Source of the DNA: a virus
Reading direction: 5' to 3' (one strand)
IMG/VR virus record: IMGVR_UViG_3300049740_000832
DNA length: 64,000 bases
Of the stretch, positions 5,498 to 55,372 are shown piece after piece. The notes beneath the pieces are model-generated. The model saw nothing but the letters and a program-made list of their open reading frames with translations. It did not search any database and was not told the DNA's origin. Numbering within the stretch: the stretch's first letter is position 1; each line of letters begins with the position of its first letter. A program made the position numbers and the translations under genes.

Positions 5498-5516
5498 TTC
5501 TACAAATTTCTCTAGT

Positions 5517-5524
5517 TATAAATA
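5517..5524 (+). promoter_or_regulatory. T4-type late promoter TATAAATA (gp18)
   Basis: Exact gp55 consensus in the gp17-gp18 gap. Confidence 0.85.
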
Positions 5525-5587
5525 AAAGTATTGAAACTACCGTATTATGAGAACTTATAATTAGATAACGAAAAAAAGGAAAAAGTT

Positions 5588-7965: not shown

Positions 7966-9474
7966 ATGGCAGACGATAATAGTATTTTTAAGTTGTTTGG
8001 TTTTGAACTCAAGAGAGCTTCCGAACAACCGAAAGAAAAGGAAAAACTAAAGTCTATTGTTGCCCCCACCGATGATGATGGTGCGGGGTATGTTACTGCG
8101 TCTGGTAGTCACTATGGTCAATACATCGACATGGATGGCGCACAGGCGAAGGACAACCAACAACTAATTATCAAATATCGTGGTGTCGCAGCACACCCTG
8201 AAGTAGACGCTGCAATCGAAGATATCGTTAACGAGTCCATCGTGGGTTCGGAGATTGGTGTATCATGTGAACTAAATCTGGACGATGTAGATGCACCTGA
8301 TAATATCAAGAAAACCATGACCGAAGAGTTCAACAACATCTATAGTATGTTGAGATTCACTGAACTGGGTCATGATATCTTCCGTTCATTTTATGTTGAT
8401 GGTCGTGTTTATCACCACCTCGTAGTAAATGAATCAAATCTCAAAGCGGGTATTCAAGAAATCCGTCCTATTGACGCTGCGAAGATTCGCAAAGTAAAAG
8501 AAGTCAAATATAGAAAAGACCAAGCAACTGGCGCAAAGGTAGTTGAGAAGGTCAACGAATTTTATATCTATCAAGAGAAAGCAGGACAAAACCAAGGCGT
8601 AAGACTTTCTCCTGATAGTGTGTCGTATGTTTCTAGTGGTCTGCTTGACCCTAGTAGGAGACAGGTTGTATCCTATCTCCATAAGGCACTAAAACCAATC
8701 AACCAACTTCGCATGATGGAAGACAGTCTGGTTATCTACCGTCTCGCACGGGCGCCAGAACGCCGTATCTTCTATATCGATGTTGGTAATATGCCCCGTA
8801 ATAAATCTGAAGCGTATATGAAAGACATCATGTCTCGTTATCGCAATAAGATTGTTTACGATTCAAATACGGGTCAACTGAAAGATGACCGTAAGCATAT
8901 GTCGATGTTGGAAGATTTCTGGTTGCCTCGCCGTGAAGGTGGTAGAGGAACTGAAATCTCAACACTTCCTGGCGGGGAAAATCTAGGACAGATTGACGAT
9001 ATTCTCTATTTCCAAAAGAGATTGTATCGTTCACTGAATGTCCCGATTAATCGTCTCGAACAGGAAGCACAATTCTCTTTGGGTCGTTCAACTGAAATCT
9101 CACGAGATGAAGTTAAGTTCCAAAAGTTTATTGACCGTCTCCGTAAACGTTTCGCAACTCTGTTTACAAATATTCTAAAGAAACAACTTATTCTCAAAGG
9201 TATTATTACTGAACAGGATTGGGATACATGGAAAAGCGGTGTGGGTATAAACTTCCAAAGAGATAACCATTTCACTGAACTCAAGAATGCTGAACTGTTG
9301 CAGAACAGACTTCAGACTCTTGACCAAGTATCACAGTATGTTGGTGAATATTTCTCGCGTGAATGGGCAATGAAAAACGTAATGATGATGTCTGATGAGG
9401 ACATCGAAGAAATGAAAAAACAAGTCGAAGGCGAAAACTCCGTTGAAGACGAAGATGAACAAGAGGATATGTAA
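7966..9474 (+). CDS. gp20: Portal vertex protein (gp20)
   Basis: YRLARAPERRIFYIDVGNMP, MLEDFWLPRREGGRGTEI. Confidence 0.98.
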   Translation: MADDNSIFKLFGFELKRASEQPKEKEKLKSIVAPTDDDGAGYVTASGSHYGQYIDMDGAQAKDNQQLIIKYRGVAAHPEVDAAIEDIVNESIVGSEIGVSCELNLDDVDAPDNIKKTMTEEFNNIYSMLRFTELGHDIFRSFYVDGRVYHHLVVNESNLKAGIQEIRPIDAAKIRKVKEVKYRKDQATGAKVVEKVNEFYIYQEKAGQNQGVRLSPDSVSYVSSGLLDPSRRQVVSYLHKALKPINQLRMMEDSLVIYRLARAPERRIFYIDVGNMPRNKSEAYMKDIMSRYRNKIVYDSNTGQLKDDRKHMSMLEDFWLPRREGGRGTEISTLPGGENLGQIDDILYFQKRLYRSLNVPINRLEQEAQFSLGRSTEISRDEVKFQKFIDRLRKRFATLFTNILKKQLILKGIITEQDWDTWKSGVGINFQRDNHFTELKNAELLQNRLQTLDQVSQYVGEYFSREWAMKNVMMMSDEDIEEMKKQVEGENSVEDEDEQEDM

Positions 9475-9475
9475 A

Positions 9476-9844
9476 ATGAGTGAATCAGAAACACTTGAAC
9501 AAGAAGTTGAAACCGTAGATGTTAATGCGGTTGAAGAACTTATCAATCAGATTACTTCGGGTGACCTAGCGAATGCAGAAGGGTCATTCAAAAGTATCGT
9601 TCAGGACAAAATGGAAGATGCGCTTGAAGCACAGCGAATTGCGACTGCACAAGCAATCTTTAATGATGTCGATGATGATGTTGAAGATGATATAGAAGAC
9701 ATCACAGACGAGGAAGTCGAAGATGAGACGATTGAGTTGGACGGAGAGGTTGAGGATGAACTTGATGCCGTTGACGAAGACGAAATCGAAGAAATCGAAA
9801 CCGAAACCGAAGAAGAAACGGAAGAAAGTGACTCAGAAGAGTAA
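9476..9844 (+). CDS. Acidic prohead core protein (gp67-like)
   Basis: Very D/E-rich small protein between portal and protease, as in T4-like phages. ATG 9476 (MSESETLEQ). Confidence 0.65.
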   Translation: MSESETLEQEVETVDVNAVEELINQITSGDLANAEGSFKSIVQDKMEDALEAQRIATAQAIFNDVDDDVEDDIEDITDEEVEDETIELDGEVEDELDAVDEDEIEEIETETEEETEESDSEE

Positions 9845-9872
9845 CTAATTGTTATCTTGAAAACATTATTTG

Positions 9873-9880
9873 TATAAATA
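9873..9880 (+). promoter_or_regulatory. Late promoter TATAAATA
   Basis: Exact consensus upstream of the 9886 ORF and gp21. Confidence 0.8.
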
Positions 9881-9885
9881 ATACT

Positions 9886-10104
9886 ATGAAAACGTATAAA
9901 GAACTAATTAGTGAATTAAAGGGACGGAAACCTAAAGGCGATGTAGTCTTTGATAAAAAGGTTAAAAGAATCCCAGTTCTAATCACTAAAGAGAAAGGTT
10001 CTCTGCCATTCGTTGTGTATATTGATGGTGACCGACTGGATGCCTTCAAATCACAGAAAGATGCAGAGAAGTCTGCGATGCAAGTAGTAAAGGAATTGAC
10101 ATGA
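9886..10104 (+). CDS. Small prohead core protein (gp68-like position)
   Basis: Starts MKTYKELISE, resembling a T4 capsid-targeting leader; synteny. Confidence 0.6.
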   Translation: MKTYKELISELKGRKPKGDVVFDKKVKRIPVLITKEKGSLPFVVYIDGDRLDAFKSQKDAEKSAMQVVKELT

Positions 10105-14562: not shown

Positions 14563-14636
14563 GCGGATGTAGCATAATGGTAATGCCGTAGGTTACCAAC
14601 CTACTGATGGGAGTTCGATTCTCTCCGTCCGCTCCA
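14563..14636 (+). tRNA. tRNA-Gly, anticodon ACC
   Basis: Full cloverleaf: GCGGATG/CGTCCGC acceptor, U73, encoded CCA, GCAT/ATGC D-stem, GTAGG-TTACCAA-CCTAC anticodon arm, GGGAG-TTCGATT-CTCTC T-arm. Confidence 0.92.
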
Positions 14637-44230: not shown

Positions 44231-44414
44231 AAAATCCAAACCTATGGGTGACGGAAACCTGATGAAGACTATGTTGTTCTTCAAGGCATGTAAAGAAGTT
44301 CTTGAAGAGTATGGTCATGATGATGCTGCATTCTACTTTGAACAGTTAGAAACGCACATGCGAGATGGTGGCACTCTTGACCAGAACAAAGCGGGAAATA
44401 TTCTTGGAGTATAA
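44208..44414 (+). CDS. Small hypothetical protein
   Basis: MSNQRAAKK...; AGGAG RBS. Confidence 0.6.
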   Translation: MSNQRAAKKSKPMGDGNLMKTMLFFKACKEVLEEYGHDDAAFYFEQLETHMRDGGTLDQNKAGNILGV

Positions 44415-44417
44415 ATA
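44410..44417 (+). promoter_or_regulatory. Late promoter TATAAATA upstream of tmRNA
   Basis: Exact consensus. Confidence 0.75.
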
Positions 44418-44423
44418 ATGGTG

Positions 44424-44716
44424 TTAATTCATAGATTTTTATCGTATTCGTTGAAGCAAACTGAAAGATAGACTGGACGGGGGTGCGATACCCCCCGCCT
44501 CCACCAAACCCCCTCTGAGGGGGCGAAATAGGTTCGACAGGTATCAAGTAGGAATGTGGAGAATAGGTGCGGAAGCCACCTGTGAGTCGGACGGGCAATC
44601 CCATCCGCAAGAGCGCAACAAACTCGTAAGTGCAAACGATAATTACGCACATGAGGATTACGCCCTCGCGGCATAATCTTCGGGGTCAGGGGACGCCTAG
44701 CAACAGAAGTCCCCAC
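44424..44716 (+). ncRNA. ssrA: Two-piece (circularly permuted) tmRNA; tag (A)ANDNYAHEDYALAA
   Basis: Acceptor 3' end ...GGGGGTGCGATACCCCCCGCCTCCACCA (to 44506) precedes the 5' GGGGGCGAAATAGGTTCGAC (from 44519). G3:U70 pair. Tag ORF 44632-44676. Ends approximate. Confidence 0.93.
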
Positions 44717-44735: not shown

Positions 44736-45173
44736 ATGATTAGATTTATTACATTATTTGTGGCGTTAGTATTCACTACGCCAGCATATGCAGAAGAAAC
44801 AATTGTTGAAATGTTGAATAAACGAGACGATGGCGCTCGTATGGTATATTCAGAAGATGTTACATACATCAATGCAGGCGACACAATCAAATGGTTGCCG
44901 ACTGATAAAGGTCATAATGTTGAGTTTATTGCAGGGCCAGAAGGTTATGAATTACCCAAACGTTCTAAGTTCAACAAAGAAGTCTCATTGACATTCGATG
45001 TGCCGGGCGTATATTTGTATCAATGCACACCTCATAAGGGTATGGGTATGATTGCACTTGTTGTTGTTGGTAATGATACATCGAATTTGGCACAAGTTGC
45101 GGCGACTAAAGTATTTGGTGGTAGTAAGAAGAAGTTACAAACTCTTGCTGCTGGAGTATCTTTAGGTAAATAA
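44736..45173 (+). CDS. Pseudoazurin (type-1 blue copper protein) with signal peptide
   Basis: Signal ending AYA, VEMLN, GHNV, C-T-P-H-x-G-M-G-M copper ligands. Confidence 0.88.
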   Translation: MIRFITLFVALVFTTPAYAEETIVEMLNKRDDGARMVYSEDVTYINAGDTIKWLPTDKGHNVEFIAGPEGYELPKRSKFNKEVSLTFDVPGVYLYQCTPHKGMGMIALVVVGNDTSNLAQVAATKVFGGSKKKLQTLAAGVSLGK

Positions 45174-45266
45174 AATGGATAAGTTTGGATTTATTATTGA
45201 TAAAGTAAGCGTTAAAGTTATTTTACTATTACTTGCCTATGTTGGTATTTTATTTTGGAGTGTAAA

Positions 45267-45584
45267 ATGAGAAAATTTATTTATGATAGTTGGAATACAA
45301 TCTTCGACCACAATATGAGCCCCTTGAAAAATATTCCTGATGTCCATGTAAGACATATGGTTTTACAAGTGCTCGCTTATATGTGGGTTATTGCATTTAG
45401 TGTTGCAATCGGTAGTTGGTCTGGATTTCTTTGGTCGATGTTGGGTCACATTGCACTGCTTACCGCAATCACAGTAACAGTAGCAACATATAAGGTTGCA
45501 GAAATAAGACCAAATACGTTTTTGGAATGGGGTTACAATCCTTCACCAAATCCAGGCAGAAGAGTTGATGGAGAACACGAATAA
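45267..45584 (+). CDS. Conserved membrane protein
   Basis: PLKNIPD..RHMVLQVLAYMW; two TM helices. Confidence 0.7.
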   Translation: MRKFIYDSWNTIFDHNMSPLKNIPDVHVRHMVLQVLAYMWVIAFSVAIGSWSGFLWSMLGHIALLTAITVTVATYKVAEIRPNTFLEWGYNPSPNPGRRVDGEHE

Positions 45585-45590
45585 TCCTAA

Positions 45591-45667
45591 CGGGGTTTAG
45601 CACAGTCTGGTAGTGCGCTCGCTTTGGGAGCGAGAGGTCGGAAGTTCGAATCTTCCAACCCCGACCA
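45591..45667 (+). tRNA. tRNA-Pro, anticodon TGG
   Basis: CGGGGTT/AACCCCG acceptor, A73, CCA; CTCGC-TTTGGGA-GCGAG; GGAAG-TTCGAAT-CTTCC. Confidence 0.95.
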
Positions 45668-45688
45668 ACAAATAGGATATATAGTTGT

Positions 45689-46717
45689 ATGAAAGTAAGA
45701 ACTCTAAAAAACAACGCAGTCGAAGCTTATGACTTTGATATCTACTCTGACGAGAATATCGCAGACTTGGGTAGACTTGTCGCGAATGAGTCTGTCGTTC
45801 TGGTAGACCAGAAACTAGACCAGAAGAGAACCTATGATGTTCAGATGCAGTGGGGTAGTCCCGCACACTCAATCGTTCACCTTGCCACATCGGTAGGGAC
45901 AATGAAGGGTGTTCATTGGAATAGTCTTCGACTGAATATTCTTAACGGTTCATCAGAGATTGAACCAGACTATCGCAACACCATGTCGGTTGTTACCTAT
46001 CAGAGAAATAAGAAAGGTAGACCGAAGGGTGTTTTTGCGAATGGCATATTGGGTTGGCACAGTGACCAAGTTGCCCTCAATGATGGAGACCGTATCATTG
46101 GTTTGGTTTCGGTTGAACATACCGAAGGGTCACAGACTGCATTTCTTTGCACCAAAGAAGCATATAACAAACTGAATCACGAAGACAGAACGATGGTTGA
46201 TGAACTCCAGAGTGTGTATCGTTGGAACAGAAAAAACTTTACGGGTAATCTGATTGACGAACAGAAACAGATGGTCAGATATAATCAAGTCCCTGTCGAT
46301 GGTATGATGTGTAAACTACAACAGTCAACACCGTCTGGTGTGAAGGGTATTCACTTCCCTGGCACTCTCTTCCATAAGTTCGATGGTATGACCGAAGAAG
46401 AAAGTCTGAAGTTCAAGGAATATCTCTGGGAGAAAATCAATCGGCCTGAATACATCTACACTCACGACTGGAAGGACGGTCAGGTTGTCTACATGGAACA
46501 GAACATCACTCTACACGCCCGTCCAACCGATATCATAGATGGTAATATGCGTAAGTTGTGGCGTAATATTTCATATATGGACAAACTATATTCAGGCGAG
46601 GGTCACAAAGATGAGTATACGGTGGACGGTAAAGTAATGGACGGTTCTGAATTCTTAACTTTGGTTGATGATATTCGAAGAGAAGAGTATGAGTCTGGAA
46701 GAAAAATTGCTGTCTAA
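45689..46717 (+). CDS. TauD/TfdA-family 2OG-Fe(II) dioxygenase
   Basis: WHSD, T.F....AY..L, H.W..GQVV......LHAR, RKLWR. Confidence 0.85.
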
Positions 46718-47150
46718 CATCGATACTCTTCTAACAGACTATCGTGTAGTAAAAGACAAATCAAAGAGAATACCAAATAAAGAACAGAACTCGTTTGGTA
46801 AGGGATGGGATACTGTCATACTAAAATACGGTAGACCTTCTAAAATCAGTTATCTGATACCAAATACTTTTGAACTATTATTAGATGAGAGAATACGAGC
46901 CGCGCACTTTATAACTCTCTATCCTAAATCGTTTGTTCCCGCCAACACAAAAATCAAATACTATGATGATGCAGTGGTTCATCATATACCTTTGATTATT
47001 CCAGAAGGTGAAACTGGAATGATATTTTCAGATAATTATGAACTCAAGAAGTGGAAGATGGGTGAAACACTCACCTATGATGGAAGTAGAACATATGCGG
47101 GGTATAACTTTACTGACGAGGAACGAGTTATACTTCATATAGTTCAATAG
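46689..47150 (+). CDS. Asp/Asn beta-hydroxylase-like protein lacking metal ligands
   Basis: HIPLIIP, W..G, N.TDEERVIL scaffold present, but HxD and the distal H are replaced. Confidence 0.55.
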   Translation: MSLEEKLLSNIDTLLTDYRVVKDKSKRIPNKEQNSFGKGWDTVILKYGRPSKISYLIPNTFELLLDERIRAAHFITLYPKSFVPANTKIKYYDDAVVHHIPLIIPEGETGMIFSDNYELKKWKMGETLTYDGSRTYAGYNFTDEERVILHIVQ

Positions 47151-47177
47151 ATACGGTTGGTCGCGAAATAGACCCGC

Positions 47178-47208
47178 GAGACGCCCACGGTTAGCGTCTC
47201 ATTTTTTT
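47178..47208 (+). terminator. Intrinsic terminator with upstream alternative pairing
   Basis: GAGACGC-CCACGGTTA-GCGTCTC-A-T7. Confidence 0.75.
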
Positions 47209-47229
47209 GTCCATTAAGACCTCTTTGCG

Positions 47230-47237
47230 TATAAATA
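47230..47237 (+). promoter_or_regulatory. Late promoter TATAAATA of the curli/cyclase operon
   Basis: Exact consensus followed by GAGGT RBS. Confidence 0.8.
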
Positions 47238-47253
47238 GGCATGAGGTAAGTAA

Positions 47254-47535
47254 ATGGAACAAGTGTTCACAATCATTGCTGAACTGGGTTTCCCTATTGC
47301 TGCCGCCTTAATTGGTGGTTTTTTTATGTTTCTGACCCTACGATATATCATGGATGGTGTTATCGGTCAGGTGAAGGGAATACACGGTATCGTATCAGCA
47401 CTCGATAATCGAGTAAAGACGATGAATCATGACCTGATTCGTCTCGATACAACTATGTGTGTCGTTTTAGGAATAAGACCAGACCTGAATCGTATCTCCC
47501 GCGCAGACGGTAAAAACGATGCGAGGAGAGACTGA
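47254..47535 (+). CDS. Single-TM coiled-coil protein (GFPI.AA; YvrJ/holin-like)
   Basis: LGFPIAAAL TM segment followed by coiled coil; paralogous to the next gene. Confidence 0.65.
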   Translation: MEQVFTIIAELGFPIAAALIGGFFMFLTLRYIMDGVIGQVKGIHGIVSALDNRVKTMNHDLIRLDTTMCVVLGIRPDLNRISRADGKNDARRD

Positions 47536-47783
47536 TGGATGTTATAACCGCAATTAAAGATTTCGGTTTTCCTATTGTAGCGGCGGTTGGTATGTTGTAT
47601 ATGATTTATTTCGTCTGGAAAACAATTACAGAGAAGATTGAAGTCTTTCTATCTGAAACTCAAACTACACTGGTTGGTTTGATTGACCGTGTTCGTATGT
47701 TGGACAATGATATCATTCGTCTACAACAAAAACTTGATACAGCGATTGAAGTAAAGAGAAGAGAAGATGAATCAAAAGAATAG
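47535..47783 (+). CDS. Single-TM coiled-coil protein (paralogue of upstream gene)
   Basis: FGFPIVAAV; DRVRMLDNDIIRL versus NRVKTMNHDLIRL. Confidence 0.65.
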   Translation: MDVITAIKDFGFPIVAAVGMLYMIYFVWKTITEKIEVFLSETQTTLVGLIDRVRMLDNDIIRLQQKLDTAIEVKRREDESKE

Positions 47784-48294
47784 AGATATGTTTCGTAAAT
47801 CTATTGGGCCAAATATCTGGTCAGGAGCAGATTTATGGAAAGCATTTATCGTTGGCGTAGTGGTTGGTATAATAGTGTTCTGGACAACAGATGCGATAGG
47901 CGCACCAATCGAATACAGTTTCAAGTCGCCATCATTCAATGGTGTCAATCAGTCATCACACTATCTGACGATTGAGAATCAAGAAACATCACGCAAAGAA
48001 GCAATAAAACAAGAATTAGAAGACTTACAAAAACAATTAGAACGAGACGCAAAGAATACGACACTTGCTAAGTTTATACGAAATGTAGAAAGTCGAATTT
48101 ACTCTACACTGTCCAGACAACTTGTGGAAGAGATGTTCGGTGAGAACCCATCAGATTCAGGTGAATTTGAGATTGAAGGCGCGGGTATCTCATATGTAAA
48201 AGATGATTTAGAAAACGAAGTGGAGTTAACGGTAACTGATGAAGATGGTAGCCAGACTGTCATTGTTATTCCTATCGGCGATTTTGGTTTCTAG
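47767..48294 (+). CDS. csgF: Curli assembly protein CsgF-like
   Basis: Hydrophobic leader, then Y.FKSPSF.G, F..N.ESRIYS.LSRQL, G.F; directly upstream of csgG. Confidence 0.78.
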   Translation: MNQKNRDMFRKSIGPNIWSGADLWKAFIVGVVVGIIVFWTTDAIGAPIEYSFKSPSFNGVNQSSHYLTIENQETSRKEAIKQELEDLQKQLERDAKNTTLAKFIRNVESRIYSTLSRQLVEEMFGENPSDSGEFEIEGAGISYVKDDLENEVELTVTDEDGSQTVIVIPIGDFGF

Positions 48295-49042
48295 TTGCAC
48301 GACCCACAAATGGGATGTCCCCTCGCAACCAGAATCAGCAAAAGTTCAAGTGGCTCTTCTGACAGAAGAATTACAGAATATTGAACCTCCGATACGAAGA
48401 CCAACGGTGGCGTTATATGCGTTCACCGACCAAACAGGACAGAAGAAACAAAACGCAAACGGCGGAACATCATTTAGTTCTGCGGTTACCCAAGCACCAG
48501 AAGTTTATCTGATTCGTGCTTTGACTCGTGCGGCTAACGGTCAGTTCTTTAAGGTGGTTGATAGGTCTGCACTAGATTGGTTAACGAGAGAGAGACAACT
48601 CATAAGACAGACACGAAGTTCTTATGAAGGTGATGGTGCAAAAAAATTACCGGCATTGACCTTTGCTGGTATGATAATTGCAGGCGGTATAGTAGGATAT
48701 GACCACTCTACCGAAAGCGGAGGTGCGGGTGCGAGATATCTCGGCATCGGCTCTTCCAGAGAGTTTAGTCGTGACACAGTGACAATCAACATGAGGTTGA
48801 TAAGTGTTGCGACTGGCGAGGTTTTACTTGATGTCATAACAAGTAAGACCATACTATCTGTCGCGTTTGGCGGAGACGTATTTCGTTATGTGGAACAGGG
48901 CACTCGACTCGTTGAGATTGAGTCTGGGACTGCCCGAAACGAAAGCGTTTCGATTGCCACTCAACGAGCGATTGAAACAGGTGTCTTAGAACTTATAAAA
49001 CTCGGAAATAGAAAAAAGTTCTGGACATTCAAAGGAGAGTAA
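48245..49042 (+). CDS. csgG: Curli secretion channel CsgG lipoprotein
   Basis: Lipobox LVSS-C; VALYAFTDQTGQ.K, FSSAVTQ, F.VVDR, L.RERQLIR, GG.GARYLGIG, TGEVL..V...KTILS. Confidence 0.93.
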   Translation: MVARLSLLFLSAILVSSCTTHKWDVPSQPESAKVQVALLTEELQNIEPPIRRPTVALYAFTDQTGQKKQNANGGTSFSSAVTQAPEVYLIRALTRAANGQFFKVVDRSALDWLTRERQLIRQTRSSYEGDGAKKLPALTFAGMIIAGGIVGYDHSTESGGAGARYLGIGSSREFSRDTVTINMRLISVATGEVLLDVITSKTILSVAFGGDVFRYVEQGTRLVEIESGTARNESVSIATQRAIETGVLELIKLGNRKKFWTFKGE

Positions 49043-49043
49043 G

Positions 49044-49781
49044 ATGAACACTTTACAAAGAATTTTTGTGATGTTGTTCCTAGTAAACGCAGGGACATCG
49101 CCCGTATGGGCTGATAATGCGGTCTACATTGACCAAGTAGGGTCAGGTGTAGATATCGATGTTACTCAAGACGGTAGTGGAAACACAATTAGTAACAATG
49201 CTAATGACACAACCAAAATGAAGGTTGATGGCGATGACATCAATTTGAGTATCGATACCGTTGGTGATACCAACAAAGTTCTTGGTGCTATTATAGGTGA
49301 CAACAGTGATGTTGATTTAGACATCGATGGCGACACCAATACAGTCACAATCGACATTGATGGAACTGACACCTATGGTGCTGGTAACGGCAATGTGGTA
49401 ATCGATTTGGACGGCGGTAATAACACACTGGACTTGAGCATTGGTAACAACGACCAAGCAACGGGCGCAGATGTTGACTGGATTGTTGACGGTGACTATA
49501 ACAGTGTAACTGCTGATATTGACATCAACAACGCAACAAATAGCATTGACTTCGCTGGAGACAATGTAACAATCGATTATGATGGTGACGGATATGATGG
49601 TCACTCTGTAACAATCGATGGCGTTGGAACAACAAACTACTGGGATATTCAAATAGACCAACAGTCAACGTTACAGTCTGATACATTGAGCATTGAAATC
49701 GAGGGTTCAGGTGACACGACTACAGATAATACCTTATGTGTTTCTCAGTCTGATTCTGGCACCGCTACCGGCTGTCAGTAA
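49044..49781 (+). CDS. Secreted curlin-like beta-solenoid repeat protein
   Basis: Sec signal ending VWA; NAVYIDQVGSG.DIDVTQDGSGN, then roughly 11-residue x-hydrophobic-x-hydrophobic-x-G-D-x-N repeats; C-terminal Cys pair. Confidence 0.7.
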   Translation: MNTLQRIFVMLFLVNAGTSPVWADNAVYIDQVGSGVDIDVTQDGSGNTISNNANDTTKMKVDGDDINLSIDTVGDTNKVLGAIIGDNSDVDLDIDGDTNTVTIDIDGTDTYGAGNGNVVIDLDGGNNTLDLSIGNNDQATGADVDWIVDGDYNSVTADIDINNATNSIDFAGDNVTIDYDGDGYDGHSVTIDGVGTTNYWDIQIDQQSTLQSDTLSIEIEGSGDTTTDNTLCVSQSDSGTATGCQ

Positions 49782-50817
49782 GGATGTCGGTCTCATAGAC
49801 CGTGCAGTCGGCTGGAGACAAGTAGTTAGAGACACAAATGAAATCGAACCTGAAAAGGGGTTTGATATAATAGCAAAAGACGACCTTCGCACAGGCGAGG
49901 GGCGTATGCAAGTGAAGTTCGTTGATGATTCGAAACTTCGCATGACCGAACACACACGCATTGTGATTGACAATGTGGTGTTTGATGATGACCCAAGTAA
50001 GTCTGACCTTGCAATGACATTCGCGCAGGGAACTGCTCGTTTCATTACGGGTAAACTTGGGACGATTGAGAAAGAGAATATTAGATTGAGAACACCGACT
50101 GCCTCAATCGGTATTCGCGGCACAGACTTTACTGTGACCGTAGACGAGTTTGGTCGCACACTTGTAGTATTATTACCTGATGTGAATGGTATATCATCGG
50201 GTGAGATTATTGTTTCGACAATGACTGGTGAGGTAGTGTTGAACAAACCGTTTCAATCCACCACAACCTCTGTGACTGAGGCGCCTCCCAGCAATCCTGC
50301 CATTCTAGACTTGACTCTAGATATGTTGGATAATATCTTGATTATCAATCCACCCAAAGAGAGAATGACAGAACAAGAGTTCTATACGTCTGTGGACAGT
50401 CGTAAGAATATCAATCCTCTTGATATTGACTTTCTCGATGAACAACTATTAGATAACGAGGAGTTTGAACGTGACTATCTGGAATTTACTGAACTTGATA
50501 TCAATTTCCTTGATGTGGAACTCCTCGAAAACCTATTAGATAGTTACTCTGACCTAGATGCAGAATTGTTGAAAGAGAAAGAGGATAAGAGTGATACTGT
50601 CGTAGAAGGGACGAGTGAGGGCTTTGACACGGTGACTCAAATCAGCACCGTTGTTGAGGGCGATAAGATTACGATGATTCGTAATGTTCAATCTATCGTG
50701 GAGATATCTGTTTCGAACAGCGAAGAGACATCTATAAATCTAGATGTTGATGGAAAGGAACTTGACCCCATTACGGTCAATGGTGGCGGTAATACCACTA
50801 TAAGTATTAAACAATGA
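49693..50817 (+). CDS. FecR-domain periplasmic protein
   Basis: D.LRTGEG.MQVKFVDDS, GTARFITG, TPTASIGIRGTDF; signal-like N-terminus; acidic tail. Start approximate. Confidence 0.85.
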   Translation: MKSRVQVTRLQIIPYVFLSLILAPLPAVSKDVGLIDRAVGWRQVVRDTNEIEPEKGFDIIAKDDLRTGEGRMQVKFVDDSKLRMTEHTRIVIDNVVFDDDPSKSDLAMTFAQGTARFITGKLGTIEKENIRLRTPTASIGIRGTDFTVTVDEFGRTLVVLLPDVNGISSGEIIVSTMTGEVVLNKPFQSTTTSVTEAPPSNPAILDLTLDMLDNILIINPPKERMTEQEFYTSVDSRKNINPLDIDFLDEQLLDNEEFERDYLEFTELDINFLDVELLENLLDSYSDLDAELLKEKEDKSDTVVEGTSEGFDTVTQISTVVEGDKITMIRNVQSIVEISVSNSEETSINLDVDGKELDPITVNGGGNTTISIKQ

Positions 50818-52646
50818 AAACATGGCATGTCCTTATTACACTGGGGTTGATGATAACCCTGAGACTGCTCGACCCCTTTCTCCTTGAAAGTGCGAGACTG
50901 TCTTTCTTTGACTCGATGCAAAGAGGACAGGAATCAAAACAATCTGAACAGATTGTCCTTATTGATATTGACGAATCGACCCTAGAGAAGTTCGGTCAGT
51001 ATCCAATCCCCCGCGAAACAATGGCAGACGAGTTGGCAAAACTTGGCAATCAGTCAGTGTTAGGTATCAATATCTTATTATCAGAACCAGACAGGTTCGG
51101 AGGGGATGACGCATTTTCAAATATGTTGTTTGAAATGGAAGCGGTAATTGCTATTGCACCAAGCGATAAGACAAACACAGACTCCCGACCAACACCTGTA
51201 GGTGTGGCAACATTCGGTGACCGCGATGCGGTAGAGTTTCGACCTGAACTAGATGGGATGTTATTTGCACTACCTGACTTCATGACAACTGCAATGGGTC
51301 ATGGAACAATCTCTGCAACACAGGATATCGATGGTATCACACGGAGAGTTCCTCTGATTGAGAACTTCGAGGGTCGCATGTATCCTGCCTTTGCACTGGA
51401 TATCCTTCGCGTGGCTGCGGGTGACATATCATATCAAATCAAGACAGACGATTACGGAATACGATTTGTTCGCATACCGAAGTTTGATGTAGTGCAGACA
51501 GACGATAATAGTAATGTGCGTATCGCATTCTGGAATGAGTTCAAGAGATATTCTTTCACAGAGATAGACCAGATACCAAGCGGAAGTATTGCGATACTGG
51601 GTGCGACCTTTAAGGGGACATCTGTCGTATCAACTCCTGTCGGTGCGATGTATCCGCATGACATTCAGGCGAACCTGTTGAAGACGATGATTGATGGTGT
51701 GACTATCATACGGATGCCAGAGTTCAAGTTTTATGAACTTTTCGCAACGATTTTAGTGTCAATAATGATACTATTCATGTTATCTAAACTCTCTATCGTC
51801 ATTTCGGGGGTATTTTTCCTGATTATCAGTTCAAGTTTCGTGAATGGTGCATCACTGATATTCGACAATACCTTTATGCTTCTTGACCCCATTTTCCCTG
51901 TTATAACATTTGTTATAATCTTTGCACATGGTTCGTTTGTCCAGTTCTATACACAATTCAAAGCGAAACAAATGATTAAGGGTCAGTTCGGAACGTATCT
52001 AAGTCCTGACATGGTTGACATGCTTGCTAACGACCCGTCACTGATGAAACTGGGCGGTGAACGCAAAGAGATGACATTCTTGTTCATGGACATCTGTGGA
52101 TTCACCCCGATATCAGAACACTACAAAAACAACGATGACCCCGAAGGATTAGTTAATCTAATCAACGAATACCTGAACGAGATGACCAACATCATTCTAC
52201 ACAACGGTGGAACTATAGATAAGTATATGGGCGATTGTATTATGGCGTTTTGGAACGCCCCTCTACCATGTGAGAATCATGCAGAGATGGCAGTGAAGTC
52301 TGCTATCGAGATAGAGGAGAAGACAAATGAACTTAAAAAGAAATATGAGTCTCGCGGTCTCCCGCCTATTAATGTGGGGACTGGCATTAATACTGGCGAT
52401 TGTATTGTTGGAAACATGGGCTCTGAAAGCAGATTCGACTATTCGGTCATTGGAGATGCCGTCAACCTTGCCGCAAGACTCGAAGCGACTGCCGCAAGAG
52501 AAGACTATGTTGATTTCAAAACAATCTATTCCAGTCACACAATGGAACAACTCACCGATATCAAGTCAAGACCTATAGGTAAAATCAAGGTCAAGGGTAA
52601 AGATGAATTGATTGAGATATACACACATGATACAGATAATCGATAA
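50814..52646 (+). CDS. CHASE2-domain class III adenylate cyclase
   Basis: TM, CHASE2 (IVLIDIDE..L...GQYP..R; D.DG..RRVPL), 3 TM, then cyclase FMDICGFT, DKYMGDCIM, YSVIGDAVNLAARLE. Confidence 0.93.
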   Translation: MKTWHVLITLGLMITLRLLDPFLLESARLSFFDSMQRGQESKQSEQIVLIDIDESTLEKFGQYPIPRETMADELAKLGNQSVLGINILLSEPDRFGGDDAFSNMLFEMEAVIAIAPSDKTNTDSRPTPVGVATFGDRDAVEFRPELDGMLFALPDFMTTAMGHGTISATQDIDGITRRVPLIENFEGRMYPAFALDILRVAAGDISYQIKTDDYGIRFVRIPKFDVVQTDDNSNVRIAFWNEFKRYSFTEIDQIPSGSIAILGATFKGTSVVSTPVGAMYPHDIQANLLKTMIDGVTIIRMPEFKFYELFATILVSIMILFMLSKLSIVISGVFFLIISSSFVNGASLIFDNTFMLLDPIFPVITFVIIFAHGSFVQFYTQFKAKQMIKGQFGTYLSPDMVDMLANDPSLMKLGGERKEMTFLFMDICGFTPISEHYKNNDDPEGLVNLINEYLNEMTNIILHNGGTIDKYMGDCIMAFWNAPLPCENHAEMAVKSAIEIEEKTNELKKKYESRGLPPINVGTGINTGDCIVGNMGSESRFDYSVIGDAVNLAARLEATAAREDYVDFKTIYSSHTMEQLTDIKSRPIGKIKVKGKDELIEIYTHDTDNR

Positions 52647-53118
52647 TTTCCTAGATGAAGAACTCTGGGATGAACTGATTGAAGACTATCATCGATGTCG
52701 TATGTATAGTGCATATGAATATGGTGAGAGACTAGGCAGTGAGTATTATAGAGTTCAGTCTTGGGTGGGGTGTTATCGTAGTGATAATCTGACAGACATT
52801 TATTCAGAAGTGACAGAGAAAATAAAAGGCGAACTGGGTATTGAAGTTCAAAAGATGACCTTCTTCAAACATCCTAAAGAGAGTTTTCCCGAACCGATGA
52901 CATACGGCATGAATATTCCTCAACACATCGATGCGAATTTCGAAAGGTCGGGGGTTCTCTACATGGTAGGAAAAGAAGGTATGGGGACAACTATCAAGGA
53001 TGAATATGTAGAGTGGCAACCAAATCGTGCAATTGCATTTGACGCACAGACTTATCATAATCCAAACTTTGGTGGAAAAGATAGGATTTCTTTAACTTTT
53101 TTTGGAAAAAAGACTTGA
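52628..53118 (+). CDS. 2OG-Fe(II) oxygenase-like protein
   Basis: IIDNFL, HID, SGVLYM, GT, PNRAIAFD...H, R.S. Confidence 0.7.
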
Positions 53119-53177
53119 CATTTTATTCTTGTTGTGATAATATAAGAACATAATCACAAACTAGAAGGAGATTGATT

Positions 53178-54128
53178 ATGGCACATGCAGTAGAAACAAT
53201 GGCGTATGCGGGAGAAGTTCCGTGGCACGGACTTGGTGTTCCTGTATCGAATGACCTGACTCCCCGTCAGATGATGGATAAGGCTGGTCTGGACTGGACG
53301 GTTGAGAAGGAAGACCTTGTAACATCGTCTGGCGCAACAGTGGAAGGCAAACAAGCACTTGTGCGTTCCTCTGACAACAAGGTTCTGGATGTCATCGGTA
53401 AAGGATGGAATCCTGTTCAGAATGAAGAAGCATTTGAGTTCTTCTCTGAGTATGTCCTTGCGGGTGACATGGAAATGCACACCGCTGGTTCACTCAAAGA
53501 CGGTAACATGGTGTGGGGTCTTGCAAAGGTGAAAGATACCTTTGATATTCTTGGTGGTGACCAAGTTGACTCATATCTCTTGTTTTCCAATCCACACCAG
53601 TATGGTAAGTCAATCGACATTCGGTTCACACCGATTCGTGTAGTGTGCAATAACACATTGTCACTCTCACTTGGTCAGAAGGTTGCAAACTCGGTGTCTC
53701 TGAACCACCGCACTACATTCAATCCTGACTCAGTAAAAGAGACTTTGGGTATTGCATCTGAAAAGTTTGCACAATACAAAGAGACCGCAGAGTTTCTTTC
53801 ATCCAAACGTTTTGGTATTAGCGAATTGATTCAATACTACAACGAAGTATTCCCTCGCACCTATCAAGGTAAGAAGGAAGTCAATGTCAAGACTGTTGGA
53901 GACCTGACTACCAATGCTCAAAAAGCATACGAGGTTCTGGAAACTCAGCCTGGCGCAGAGTTCGGTGAAGGAACATGGTGGCAGGCACTGAACAGTGTGA
54001 CCTACCTGACCGACCACCAGATGGGTCGTGAGGCAGACACACGTTTGACTTCTGCATGGTTTGGTTCAAACCAGACACGCAAAGTCCGTGCTGTAGAAAA
54101 AGCGGTGGAGTATGCACTCGCCGCTTAA
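53178..54128 (+). CDS. DUF932 / phage-plasmid conserved protein
   Basis: PWHGLG, AGLDW.V, VQN.EAF.F, TAGSL, TPIRVVCNNTL; early promoter at 53115. Confidence 0.88.
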   Translation: MAHAVETMAYAGEVPWHGLGVPVSNDLTPRQMMDKAGLDWTVEKEDLVTSSGATVEGKQALVRSSDNKVLDVIGKGWNPVQNEEAFEFFSEYVLAGDMEMHTAGSLKDGNMVWGLAKVKDTFDILGGDQVDSYLLFSNPHQYGKSIDIRFTPIRVVCNNTLSLSLGQKVANSVSLNHRTTFNPDSVKETLGIASEKFAQYKETAEFLSSKRFGISELIQYYNEVFPRTYQGKKEVNVKTVGDLTTNAQKAYEVLETQPGAEFGEGTWWQALNSVTYLTDHQMGREADTRLTSAWFGSNQTRKVRAVEKAVEYALAA

Positions 54129-54756
54129 AAATATCAAAGTCTTGGGAGAGGTTGACGTAATCACTTACGTCAATCTCTTTTCAAATATCGATGATAGAGA
54201 TTGGATGGGTGAATTCAATAAATTCACTAAACATTATATTCCAGGCTTCCAAGAACTTGAAATACTCCCTATGTTATATTCTCTCAAGAAGACACATGTA
54301 ACTAAATTTAGAGACGATTATACTGTTGAGGAAGCCGCAAGTAATTGGTCGATTGATAACGCAGTGGACTATAGAACAGGCGGTGGTCTTGGCGAAGATT
54401 ATGTTACCTTGAAAGGTAGGTTGTATGAAAAGTTTTATGATGAAAGATTACTGACCGATATAAAAAAATTACTATCCGATAAATTCGGTGACGGAACAAT
54501 CAGTATGTTTTTGTTAAACCTTATGAATCCACATTCAAATATTGAACCACATGTTGATGATACAACAGGAAACAAAAGGCGTATACACATACCACTCGTA
54601 ACACACCCTGATATTAAATTTCGTAACGGTAATGATGAGATACATATGGAAGTTGGTAAGGTTTATTTGTTTGACCATGAAAAAGAACACTCAGTCATAA
54701 ATCCAACAGATTATGAACGTATTCATCTGATAATGGATTGGAGACCAAATGATTAA
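54112..54756 (+). CDS. Asp/Asn beta-hydroxylase-domain protein (copy 1)
   Basis: I.PHVD, RIHIPL.T, H.V.N....ERIHL. Confidence 0.78.
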   Translation: MHSPLKNIKVLGEVDVITYVNLFSNIDDRDWMGEFNKFTKHYIPGFQELEILPMLYSLKKTHVTKFRDDYTVEEAASNWSIDNAVDYRTGGGLGEDYVTLKGRLYEKFYDERLLTDIKKLLSDKFGDGTISMFLLNLMNPHSNIEPHVDDTTGNKRRIHIPLVTHPDIKFRNGNDEIHMEVGKVYLFDHEKEHSVINPTDYERIHLIMDWRPND

Positions 54757-55372
54757 AGTTCTTGGTGAAGTTGATGTAAGTTATTATATTAATCTCTTCT
54801 CTAATATTGATGATGCAGACTGGATAGATGAATTTTCAAAATTCAGTAAAAAATATATTCCTTTCTTTCGAGAATTGGATAGACTGCCACTTTTGTTAAA
54901 TATGAGAAAAGACTATGAAAATAACTATGAAAGTATTGAAGAGATTATTACTACTTCAGACGTTGGTAATAATCATGATGTTGTTGAGTTTCTAAATGAA
55001 GGCGACTTAAATGATGACATAACCATTAAAGGCAAATTCTACGAAAAATATTACAACAAAAAGTTTTTCGATGAACTTTTCGAAGTTGTCAGAAATGAGT
55101 TCGGTGATGGACAATGTATGACATTGATTTTTAATTTAATGAATCCTCACTCTAGGATTTATCCACACGCAGACGAGAGAACTGGTAATAAGAAACGTAT
55201 ACATATTCCTATCATTACACATCCTGATATTAAGTTTCGTAACGGTAATGATGAGATACATATGGAAGTTGGTAAAGTATACAAAATAGAACATTCTATA
55301 GAACACTCTGTTGATAATCCGACAGATTGTGAACGTATTCATTTAGTGATTGATTGGAAGATTAATGATTAA
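54749..55372 (+). CDS. Asp/Asn beta-hydroxylase-domain protein (copy 2)
   Basis: PHAD, RIHIPIIT, HSVDN, ERIHL; tandem paralogue of copy 1. Confidence 0.78.
   Translation: MIKVLGEVDVSYYINLFSNIDDADWIDEFSKFSKKYIPFFRELDRLPLLLNMRKDYENNYESIEEIITTSDVGNNHDVVEFLNEGDLNDDITIKGKFYEKYYNKKFFDELFEVVRNEFGDGQCMTLIFNLMNPHSRIYPHADERTGNKKRIHIPIITHPDIKFRNGNDEIHMEVGKVYKIEHSIEHSVDNPTDCERIHLVIDWKIND

Follow-up and report, generated by a model that had tools for sequence, protein, structure and literature searches.

What might a marine phage gain by carrying, in a single operon, the components of curli export together with a FecR-domain protein and a CHASE2 nucleotidyl cyclase? The question is raised by seven packed ORFs on the + strand at positions 47254-52646, downstream of a TATAAATA motif, in a 64,000-nt stretch of viral DNA (IMG/VR record IMGVR_UViG_3300049740_000832), hereafter the window. 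The identities of the seven components, proposed in an initial annotation made from the sequence alone, are near certain, being borne out by profile searches and structure comparison (Table 1). In it, an uncultured marine T4-like myophage carries the type VIII secretion (curli) module of the pelagiphage type, and the locus is accordingly already known in kind.

Table 1. Features of the module and of the region immediately upstream.
Feature	Position	Strand	Evidence or remark
Terminator-like hairpin, then T7 run	47178..47208	+	read by eye from sequence
TATAAATA, T4-type late-promoter motif	47230..47237	+	17 nt upstream of first ATG
Small single-TM protein 1, 93 aa, phrog_18771	47254..47535	+	PHROG match 1e-31
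Small single-TM protein 2, 82 aa, phrog_18771	47535..47783	+	PHROG match 7.6e-24
CsgF-like protein, long N-terminal leader	47767..48294	+	PF10614, 3.6e-13; phrog_35372
CsgG outer-membrane lipoprotein	48239..49042	+	PF03783, 2.3e-45; lipobox LVSSC
Secreted Asp-rich curlin-like beta-solenoid subunit	49044..49781	+	signal peptide + repeats
Secreted FecR-domain protein	49693..50817	+	PF04773, 1.1e-11
TATAAGTA, late-promoter-like motif, one mismatch	50799..50806	+	directly upstream of cyclase start
CHASE2 sensor + class III nucleotidyl cyclase, membrane	50814..52646	+	CHASE2 1.2e-31, Guanylate_cyc 1.2e-19

Organization of the locus

The seven ORFs lie where the initial annotation had placed them and are, as it stated, tightly packed or overlapping, with successive junctions of -1, -17, -56, +1, -89 and -4 nt when the longest ORFs are used. 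The late-type promoter motif that it reported ahead of the operon is also present. The window holds nine copies of TATAAATA, every one on the + strand, against 2.9 expected, a number reached in 2 of 100 shuffles of the window. In addition, 29 of 30 distinct viral loci related to the window carry the motif no more than 80 nt ahead of the first small gene, and the copy that heads the module would act as a promoter. Regarding TATAAGTA, an exact TATAAATA stands in its place, upstream of the cyclase start, in about nine related loci; the motif may be a mere by-product of the T-I-x-I codons conserved where FecR ends.

The hairpin upstream (arms 47178-47184 and 47194-47200, T7 run at 47202-47208) would close the preceding gene, which encodes an Asp/Asn-hydroxylase-like protein, and it is missing from the automated hairpin scan because its 9-nt loop exceeds the 8-nt limit of that scan. 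As weak evidence of co-transcription, RNA-library contigs span CsgG/curlin/FecR and FecR/cyclase, but the flanking genes are equally covered and DNA carry-over may account for these contigs.

Small membrane proteins

The first two genes encode paralogues (21% identity, G-x-P motif in both), each with one N-terminal hydrophobic segment. Small protein 1 has a single long helix, a GFPI motif ahead of the TM helix and a conserved C-terminal ADG-x-x-D-x-RRD; it matches no Pfam family at E <= 0.1, and in the Atlas it is found in viral clusters only, YvrJ being the nearest named family, at 0.89. Small protein 2 shows a weak match to a holin phrog (E 0.005), and no holin Pfam family was found in 14 homologues. 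The small upstream genes bear the label "HK" in PMC9599517, but a histidine kinase identity was rejected here, where they are devoid of any kinase feature. Both proteins are phage-specific additions, missing from the bacterial cassette described below.

Secretion components

The CsgF-like protein has a hydrophobic segment at residues 26-44 and a mature N-terminus predicted as IEYSFKSPSFNG. In CsgG, which shares 41-44% identity with the CsgG of Caulobacteraceae and Henriciella, the lipobox Cys20 is invariant in the homologue alignment. The curlin-like subunit repeats G-x-x-N every 22-28 residues, with conserved periodicity, and carries C-x10-C at its C-terminus. Its Curlin_rpt match (E 0.018) is under the cut-off; its AF2 model, however, is an all-beta solenoid (pLDDT 78.5) whose best solved match is a curli subunit, CsgA 8c50 (Z 18.9, 24% identity), and weak profile matches to 8c50 and 8enq were also obtained.

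With respect to the curli system of E. coli and Salmonella (csgBAC-csgDEFG), the CsgG lipoprotein and CsgF are clearly homologous, and both systems have a Sec-exported repeat subunit predicted to form a beta-solenoid. The window module differs in having neither CsgD nor CsgC, no CsgE among its seven ORFs and, because its curlin gene is single, no separate CsgB-type nucleator, whereas FecR and a cyclase lie inside the operon. Its Asp-rich, Gln-poor subunit is nearer to the Pontibacter CsgA (8c50) than to that of E. coli and Salmonella.

FecR-domain protein and CHASE2 cyclase

The alignment of the FecR-domain protein reveals a signal peptide, a conserved FecR core at about residues 30-225, a variable, acidic linker and, at the C-terminus, ~70 aa that form another conserved domain; the AF2 model was unusable (pLDDT 46). 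Behind the signal peptide there is a generic FecR domain only, without a cytoplasmic anti-sigma part, and neither a FecI-type sigma factor nor a TonB-dependent transducer was found among the seven ORFs of the module. The FecR stop and the cyclase start overlap (ATGA), which accounts for the last junction.

The cyclase has hydrophobic segments at 6-24, 312-330 and 353-371 and a type IIIb-like (Lys/Ser) catalytic domain at about 410-600. Its best solved relatives are a bacteriophytochrome-adenylate cyclase fusion (6fht) and P. aeruginosa CyaB (3r5g and 2w01). The claim that the class III catalytic residues are intact proved correct: Asp426, Lys470, Asp474, Arg540, Asn551 and Arg555 are all present and invariant in 20 homologues, and position 544 is Ser/Thr. 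In the tree, phage cyclases group with the curli-linked cyclases of bacteria in a single clade (SH-aLRT 100), and the 71 other CHASE2 cyclases fall outside it.

A related architecture is known in S. meliloti, where the CHASE2 receptor adenylate cyclases CyaD1, CyaD2 and CyaK make cAMP on an external cue, and an exported FecR-domain gene, SMc02177, adjoins CyaD1 (PMC5498481). In that system, however, there are no type VIII secretion genes and the output is read by Clr, and the phage cyclase belongs to the separate, curli-linked clade. SMc02177 is, moreover, dispensable for signal perception (PMC5498481).

Distribution in phages and bacteria

Every related IMG/VR viral contig with room for them has the full set of seven genes (43 contigs, CsgG identity 64-96%), the only gaps being truncations at contig ends; FecR and the cyclase therefore do co-occur with csgFG in related phages. 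Of all parts of the module, the curlin evolves fastest within these contigs, with 43-93% identity where the cyclase keeps 65-97%. The same gene order, namely small upstream gene(s), CsgF, CsgG, curlin-repeat protein, FecR and cyclase, is annotated in Pelagibacter phage HTVC008M (KC465899) and Methylophilales phage Melnitz (MZ577097), whose proteins are 31-51% identical to those of the window. There is a single curlin gene in the window, as in most of its clade, whereas in HTVC008M and Melnitz another one lies between FecR and the cyclase, and that of HTVC008M also bears a PA14 domain.

First noted in PMC7029224, the pelagiphage curli module was described in PMC9599517 (mSystems 2022), which covers its origins, distribution and expression and gives the order "HK"-CsgF-CsgG-CsgA/B-FecR-(CsgA/B)-AC in podo- and myo-pelagiphages (SAR11-infecting), with curlin, FecR and adenylate cyclase conserved in Podoviridae and Myoviridae. 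In HTVC023P-type podophages and pelagimyophages the module is placed as in the window, downstream of replication-side genes. Thus, the novelty initially attributed to this set of genes is not upheld, and the premise that csgF/csgG pairs in phages generally lack a curlin and any signalling output is outdated, in view of PMC9599517 and of the HTVC008M and Melnitz annotation.

A csgF-csgG-curlin-fecR-cyclase block also occurs in four alphaproteobacterial MAGs of Caulobacterales type (Henriciella, Caulobacteraceae; loci L005/L126, L164, L004/L129 and L128), the total among the species-representative genomes reached by two scans. These cassettes are chromosomal, with housekeeping genes on their flanks, and keep the order of the five csgF-to-cyclase genes of the window, at 28-44% protein identity and with cyclases sister to those of phages; in L004, L005 and L128, FecR and the cyclase overlap when their longest ORFs are taken. 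They differ from the window in having two curlin genes, or one long gene, ahead of FecR, in addition to lacking the two small proteins. L004 and L128 have only the ~6 kb block in common (87% nt identity), in unrelated flanks.

Pelagibacteraceae, used here as the host group although they may not be the own host of the window phage, encode cNMP receptors (PF00027) in 41 of the 41 genomes searched and a CHASE2 cyclase in 32 of the 41, adjoining each other; CsgG was not found in these 41 genomes, bar three weak, atypical matches. The sole Pelagibacteraceae locus annotated (L051) comprises an OEP, a C39-ABC exporter, a cNMP-binding HlyD, a CHASE2 cyclase and two small cNMP-binding proteins. Like the window, it sets a CHASE2 class III cyclase (33% identity) beside a trans-envelope secretion system; however, this system is of type I and not type VIII, the cNMP receptors lie within the locus, no FecR was detected, and the cyclase falls in a separate clade from those of phages. 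To the published picture, our analysis adds the bacterial csgF-to-cyclase cassette, the lack of kinase identity of the small proteins and the distribution of receptors.

Function of the module

We lean modestly towards a reading in which the module would be a late type VIII secretion system exporting the curlin-like subunit, accompanied by a FecR/CHASE2 sensor pair whose cAMP would be read by the host. CsgG and CsgF would form the outer-membrane channel and its cap, so that late in infection a host without a type VIII system of its own would acquire a channel and send the subunit to its surface. Export, or the state of the envelope, would be sensed by the FecR-domain protein of the periplasm together with the CHASE2 domain, and the cyclase would convert this signal into cAMP. 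No cNMP receptor was detected in related phages: HTVC008M, Melnitz and three IMG/VR records of 62-100% estimated completeness are all devoid of PF00027 and PycTM matches. The cAMP would therefore be read by cNMP-binding proteins of the host. Such a circuit from pore to FecR, CHASE2 and cAMP is plausible on the basis of sequence, and the signal path agrees with synteny, with predicted topology and with the overlap of FecR stop and cyclase start that phages and bacteria share. Against this explanation stand the dispensability of SMc02177 and the failure of the Melnitz authors to see clumping of infected cells (PMC9004378), together with the single curlin gene and hence no CsgB-type nucleator, the lack of CsgE among the seven ORFs, the sub-threshold curlin Pfam match, the weak RNA evidence and a promoter known from its motif alone.

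Ideas on aggregation and lysis timing are already in print (PMC9004378, PMC7029224). In the lysis-timing reading, taken up in the initial annotation, CsgG/CsgF would be a gated pore, perhaps with the small proteins in a role like that of holin or antiholin; on opening, the pore would depolarise or permeabilise the envelope, with timing tuned by the cyclase (Buchholz et al. 2022). The late-type motif at the module head, the phage specificity of the small proteins, the holin match and the structural argument published for Melnitz CsgGF (PMC9004378) speak for it. Nevertheless, CsgG is in the outer membrane and hence could not dissipate the proton motive force on its own, the holin match is not significant, and the csgF-to-cyclase block is also found in bacteria, where a phage lysis role is impossible. 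Since it also leaves unexplained the conservation of a secreted curlin-like subunit that, in structure, matches a genuine curli subunit best, we regard it as unlikely.

The rapid divergence of the curlin, as expected of a surface-exposed protein, and the compatible architecture of a periplasmic sensor would fit superinfection sensing or exclusion, with fibres masking receptors or trapping phages and FecR/CHASE2 sensing secondary adsorption or envelope damage (a variant put forward in the initial annotation and also in PMC9599517). Low-complexity repeat proteins, however, change fast for trivial reasons, and late expression would leave little time for exclusion to count, making this quite unlikely. 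The lack of CsgE among the seven ORFs, for its part, could point to an ungated CsgG pore admitting cofactors, siderophores or other nutrients to the periplasm, FecR then being a regulator linked to iron (PMC9599517, PMC7029224); this appears highly improbable, given a FecR protein without an anti-sigma part in a module without FecI-type sigma or TonB-dependent transducer, and it would leave the conserved curlin and CsgF unexplained. Finally, the idea that the cassette is a mere passenger, selfish or in decay, that plays no part in infection is disfavoured and barely credible: the ~6 kb block behaves as a mobile unit in bacteria and its site in phages is a hypervariable genome region (PMC7029224), but the 43 viral contigs, diverged as they are, keep the seven genes intact, the catalytic residues and the promoter motif are conserved, and the pelagiphage module is globally abundant and reported to be transcribed (PMC9599517).

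Curli, FecR and cyclase genes in the window and related phages

Our analysis finds in the window one more member of the published phage module that joins curli secretion genes to a FecR-domain protein and a CHASE2 adenylate cyclase. The seven ORFs described in the initial annotation were all recovered on the + strand, separated by junctions of -1, -17, -56, +1, -89 and -4 nt (from the longest ORFs), and Pfam gave matches to CsgF (PF10614, 3.6e-13), CsgG (PF03783, 2.3e-45), FecR (PF04773, 1.1e-11), CHASE2 (PF05226, 1.2e-31) and Guanylate_cyc (PF00211, 1.2e-19). Two small genes precede the adjoining csgF and csgG, which are followed by the curlin-repeat gene, the FecR-domain gene and, at the 3' end, the cyclase; none of the seven ORFs has a Pfam match to CsgC, CsgD or CsgE, and six of the encoded proteins already have PHROGs families. 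CsgG bears a lipobox (LVSSC) whose Cys20 is invariant in the CsgG alignment, and signal-peptide-like segments open both the curlin-like and the FecR proteins. In curli systems an N-terminal CsgF peptide enters the CsgG barrel; the predicted mature N-terminus of the window's CsgF, IEYSFKSPSFNG, resembles the F-x-F-x-N-P-x-F-G-G motif of E. coli CsgF.

Among deposited phages, tblastn retrieved full-length cyclase homologues at 44% from Pelagibacter phage HTVC008M and at 35% from the Melnitz phages of Methylophilales, in which the order is two small genes, CsgF, CsgG, a curlin-associated protein, FecR, a second curlin-repeat gene and the cyclase. The window keeps the CsgF-CsgG-curlin-FecR-cyclase order of the pelagiphage type VIII secretion (T8SS) module, together with the small upstream genes. 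Scanning IMG/VR with CsgG yielded 43 loci (64-96% identity), and the expected co-occurrence of FecR and cyclase with csgFG held throughout, all seven genes being present in order wherever downstream sequence exists and the gaps corresponding to contig ends. Curlin is the least conserved gene of the module (43-93%) and the cyclase is among the most conserved (65-97%). In some viral contigs, additional genes, amounting to ~400-900 nt of extra sequence, lie at two recurrent insertion sites (Table).

Table. Features of the window, and insertion sites in related viral contigs
Feature	Position in window (nt)	Related viral contigs	Basis
tRNA-Gly(ACC)	14563-14636		ARAGORN
Plastocyanin/pseudoazurin-like copper protein, candidate	44736-45173		by eye
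tRNA-Pro(TGG)	45591-45667		ARAGORN
TauD-family protein	45689-46717		
Asp/Asn beta-hydroxylase-like protein	46665-47150		
Late-promoter motif TATAAATA at the module head	47230-47237		
Seven-ORF module, + strand	47254-52646		
One-mismatch motif TATAAGTA	50799-50806		
Weak Asp/Asn beta-hydroxylase-like match	52612-53118		
DUF932 protein	53172-54128		
Insertion site between the two small genes		L090, L094, L096, L111, L115	
Insertion site between FecR and cyclase		L087, L089, L092, L094, L095, L110	

A "curli operon" had been reported in pelagimyophages (PMC7029224, 2020), and the module in its entirety, FecR and adenylate cyclase included, was later described in pelagiphages of the Podoviridae and Myoviridae, with four genes of alphaproteobacterial affinity, metatranscriptome matches and a share of ~0.1% of the assembled viral proteins in global ocean viromes (PMC9599517, 2022). 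The link between curli, FecR and cyclase genes in phages, the central point of the initial annotation, had thus already been published, and the view given there of csgFG pairs in phages, as generally having no curlin or signalling output, was out of date (PMC9599517). Taken as a whole, that first reading stands as an observation, falls as a novelty, since the arrangement is known in kind, and is supported in part as an interpretation.

The curlin-like protein

The assignment of the repeat protein as a curlin is reasonable, although formation of amyloid by it is putative. The Pfam Curlin_rpt model scores below cut-off on the window protein (E 0.018), and the cut-off is passed by its homologue in a Caulobacteraceae MAG (L004:5356-6036, 1.3e-5) and by the additional curlin gene that HTVC008M and Melnitz each have. 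Alignment of 16 homologues revealed a leading DN-x-x-Y-x-DQ-x-G motif and invariant G-x-x-N pairs every 22-28 residues, together with a C-terminal C-x10-C that is phage-specific. The AF2 model is a continuous strand-turn-strand solenoid (pLDDT 78.5, pTM 0.78). Foldseek returned no PDB match for it at E <= 0.001, and exhaustive structural alignment (VIA-align) placed 8c50, a curli subunit of Pontibacter korlensis, at the top (Z 18.9, 210 residues, 24% identity, rmsd 8.5), above generic beta-helices (Z <= 16, 4-12% identity); a curli subunit took first place in this search only. The curlin profile, when compared with PDB sequences, gave weak, sub-significant matches to 8c50 (0.07) and to E. coli CsgA 8enq (0.38).

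The window module has a single curlin-like gene rather than a separate CsgB nucleator and CsgA major subunit; a second copy exists in some relatives, such as HTVC008M and Melnitz. In HTVC008M, the ORF between FecR and the cyclase (L001:5637-6962, annotated "hypothetical protein") encodes both a PA14 domain (2.7e-6) and curlin repeats (5.2e-8), a composition that suggests a carbohydrate-binding, adhesin-like curlin variant.

The FecR protein and the CHASE2 cyclase

The FecR domain lies at residues 63-152 and is preceded just by the signal-peptide-like segment at 7-25, with neither a cytoplasmic anti-sigma N-domain nor a transmembrane (TM) anchor ahead of it. No ECF sigma factor or TonB-dependent transducer was found among the seven ORFs. 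In this regard, the module differs from the FecIRA system of E. coli, which has the anti-sigma domain and TM anchor, the sigma partner and the transducer. The AF2 model of the protein (pLDDT 46) was left out of the fold search, and its profile matched nothing among PDB sequences at E <= 1. The C-terminus, N-G-x-x-T-x-I-x-I-x-Q, raised the suspicion of half a curlin repeat, which was discarded when profile-profile comparison of the FecR and curlin alignments paired only 12 columns at 2% probability.

In the cyclase, PF05226 spans residues 10-315 and hydrophobic segments lie at 6-24, 312-330 and 353-371, followed by the cyclase domain; this predicted layout fits that of CHASE2 receptors, with an N-terminal TM segment, a periplasmic CHASE2 domain, further TM helices and a cytoplasmic output. 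Alignment to solved cyclases, namely the bacteriophytochrome-cyclase fusion 6fht and Pseudomonas aeruginosa CyaB (3r5g and 2w01), confirmed the integrity of the class III residues noted initially: both metal-binding aspartates (Asp426, Asp474), the substrate lysine of DKY (Lys470) and the transition-state Asn551 and Arg555 of NLAARLE. All 20 homologues compared, from phages and bacteria, have these five residues and the phosphate-binding Arg540. At the second specificity position, phages have Ser544 and two bacterial homologues have Thr, which is also the aligned residue of CyaB. Class IIIa cyclases have Asp at this position and class IIIb cyclases have Thr, and the Lys/Ser-or-Thr pattern is typical of class IIIb. 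Because the Lys/Ser pair matches this pattern, ATP is the likely substrate of the phage enzyme.

PycC models also match the cyclase domain (1.6e-24), as they may match any class III cyclase. In Pycsar systems PycC is paired with a PycTM or PycTIR effector; for the phage cyclase no such PycTM partner was found in five related phage genomes. One PycTM gene (PF18967, 8.8e-25) was observed at L004:10482-11075, ~440 nt downstream of a curli-linked cyclase and with no PycC adjoining. Seen once and outside the block common to the Caulobacteraceae MAGs L004 and L128, it was set aside as a chance neighbour; the scans of the remaining bacterial loci gave no PycTM either.

The small membrane proteins

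The slot upstream of csgF is occupied by two phrog_18771 paralogues of 93 and 82 aa. Both have a single TM segment and one long helix, and they share an invariant G-x-P motif. Pfam assigns them to nothing at E <= 0.1, the Atlas places only viral clusters near them, likewise without a Pfam family, and they are missing from the bacterial versions of the module. Genes in this slot, one or two in number, have been labelled "histidine kinase" or "HK" (PMC9599517). The label finds no support here: 82 or 93 aa are too few for HisKA/DHp and HATPase_c domains, and no kinase family was matched in 14 homologues at E <= 1. YvrJ (2 of the 14 homologues, E 0.12) and a non-significant PHROG holin match (0.005) are weak leads as to their identity. 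We regard both as single-pass membrane proteins specific to phages.

A curli-FecR-cyclase cassette in bacteria

The closest bacterial relatives of the cyclase and of CsgG reside in the same loci, those of two Henriciella and two Caulobacteraceae MAGs. In three of these four MAGs, csgF, csgG, one or more curlin genes, fecR and the cyclase gene stand in this order between housekeeping flanks, and the contig of the second Henriciella MAG stops inside csgG. The bacterial CsgG loci were found with an alignment as query, a single-sequence CsgG scan of the genome contigs having given no match. Neither FecR nor the cyclase was present in the more distant gammaproteobacterial curli loci examined.

Two Caulobacteraceae MAGs from one sample share 87% nucleotide identity over the csgF-to-cyclase block (L004:4085-10039 and L128:8615-14553). 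Since only the block aligns between them and the flanks are unrelated, it appears to move as a cassette of ~6 kb. This five-gene block, as a discrete bacterial cassette, is an addition to what was known of the module and corrects the statement placing FecR and cyclase outside bacterial T8SS operons. When 92 CHASE2 cyclases were placed in a tree, those of phages and of curli-linked bacterial loci grouped in a single clade (SH-aLRT 100), with 71 further bacterial enzymes outside it; the tree came from a quick search run without bootstraps, and long branches were flagged in the curli-linked bacterial group. Phage-type module genes also occur on three short contigs, L127, L003 and L006, that were binned into bacterial MAGs (Ca. 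Pelagibacter MED1116, a Rhizobiaceae MAG and a Saprospiraceae MAG). These contigs group within the phage cyclase clade and probably represent pieces of phage genomes that were binned with bacteria.

Probable late-type transcription

The T4-type late-promoter motif TATAAATA at the module head is one of nine copies in the window, all on the + strand, against 2.9 expected; a hairpin and a T7 run after it lie shortly upstream. The late motif recurs in 29 of 30 distinct related viral loci, no more than 80 nt ahead of the first small gene and in most cases 10-16 nt from its start codon. Late-type transcription of the module has good comparative support, yet the argument is one from motifs. A second exact copy precedes the cyclase start by ~15 nt, inside the last FecR codons, in about nine relatives (including L083, L084, L087, L104, L107, L110, L111 and L116), at the place where the window has the one-mismatch version TATAAGTA. 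The cyclase may have an internal late promoter here, or the second motif may simply follow from the conserved codons for T-I-x-I-x-Q.

Two studies provided RNA-library contigs that span the junctions CsgG/curlin/FecR and FecR/cyclase. DNA carry-over is possible in these contigs, because the flanks are equally covered and the depth is low. No contig from runs X1-X3 covers 47004-47671, which speaks neither for nor against a transcript start at the module head.

Possible function and host receptors

On the best-supported reading of the module, the phage would, late in infection, provide its host with a channel of CsgG and CsgF and export the curlin-like subunit. The FecR-domain protein, once exported, would pair with the CHASE2 domain as a periplasmic sensor controlling the synthesis of cAMP, to be read by host proteins. 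Every functional step is one that we infer, and the reading is supported by strict synteny, by the FecR/cyclase start/stop overlap seen in phages and bacteria alike, by the predicted topology and by the mobility of the block as a unit. Of the FecR-domain proteins encoded beside a CHASE2 cyclase, Sinorhizobium meliloti SMc02177 is the single studied case, and it was dispensable for signal perception (PMC5498481).

Rival readings, which we hold less likely, have been considered. The module may instead act in lysis timing, a role proposed for CsgGF of Melnitz by authors who observed no clumping of infected cells (PMC9004378, 2022). Alternatively, it may sense superinfection or form an uptake pore.

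With regard to the reading of cAMP by host proteins, neither a cNMP-binding domain nor PycTM was found in the five related phage genomes searched (HTVC008M, Melnitz and three IMG/VR records estimated to be 62-100% complete). cNMP-binding proteins are encoded in all 41 Pelagibacteraceae genomes and one CHASE2 protein of ~790 aa in 32 of them (G005-G047). By coordinates, cNMP-binding ORFs are no more than ~3 kb away from the CHASE2 gene in essentially all genomes with this gene. CsgG was not found in these 41 genomes, save for three weak, atypical CsgG-domain matches (L168-L170, in G035, G023 and G041; E 1e-7 to 2e-6, ORFs unusually long at 412-425 aa). In the annotated Pelagibacteraceae locus L051:169-12087, the order is a TolC-like OEP, a C39-ABC exporter, an HlyD protein whose N-terminal domain binds cNMP by prediction (4975-6699), the CHASE2 cyclase and two small cNMP-binding proteins (9063-9500 and 9501-9968), with DUF1538 and a P-II-like protein coming last; this locus has the look of a type I secretion system under cyclic-nucleotide control. 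A SAR11-type host, which may not be the host of this phage, would therefore offer candidate cAMP receptors and couple its own CHASE2 cyclase to trans-envelope secretion. That the candidate receptors are host-encoded and adjoin the host CHASE2 cyclase, inside a type I secretion operon in the annotated locus, also adds to the published picture.

A more specific proposal can be made, which we regard as unlikely in its entirety: csgF-to-cyclase would be a self-contained, mobile "secrete-and-sense" cassette of Caulobacterales-type bacteria and marine phages, in which FecR/CHASE2 monitors curlin export and phage-made cAMP targets host cNMP-binding proteins, including the T1SS HlyD-type membrane-fusion protein adjoining the host CHASE2 cyclase in Pelagibacteraceae. 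Were this proposal true, the phage would switch on or re-tune a host secretion system late in infection.

SAR11 and OM43 phages are among the most abundant ocean viruses, and the module would give infected cells an otherwise missing secretion system together with a second-messenger output; as a consequence, it may alter aggregation, lysis timing or secretion in a large share of infected marine bacteria.

Genomic surroundings of the module

ARAGORN called the two tRNA genes in the window (Table) and no other RNA gene; a permuted tmRNA at 44410-44716 was not called. The module sits among small oxygenase-type genes, within 44736-47150 on one side and 52612-55372 on the other (Table).
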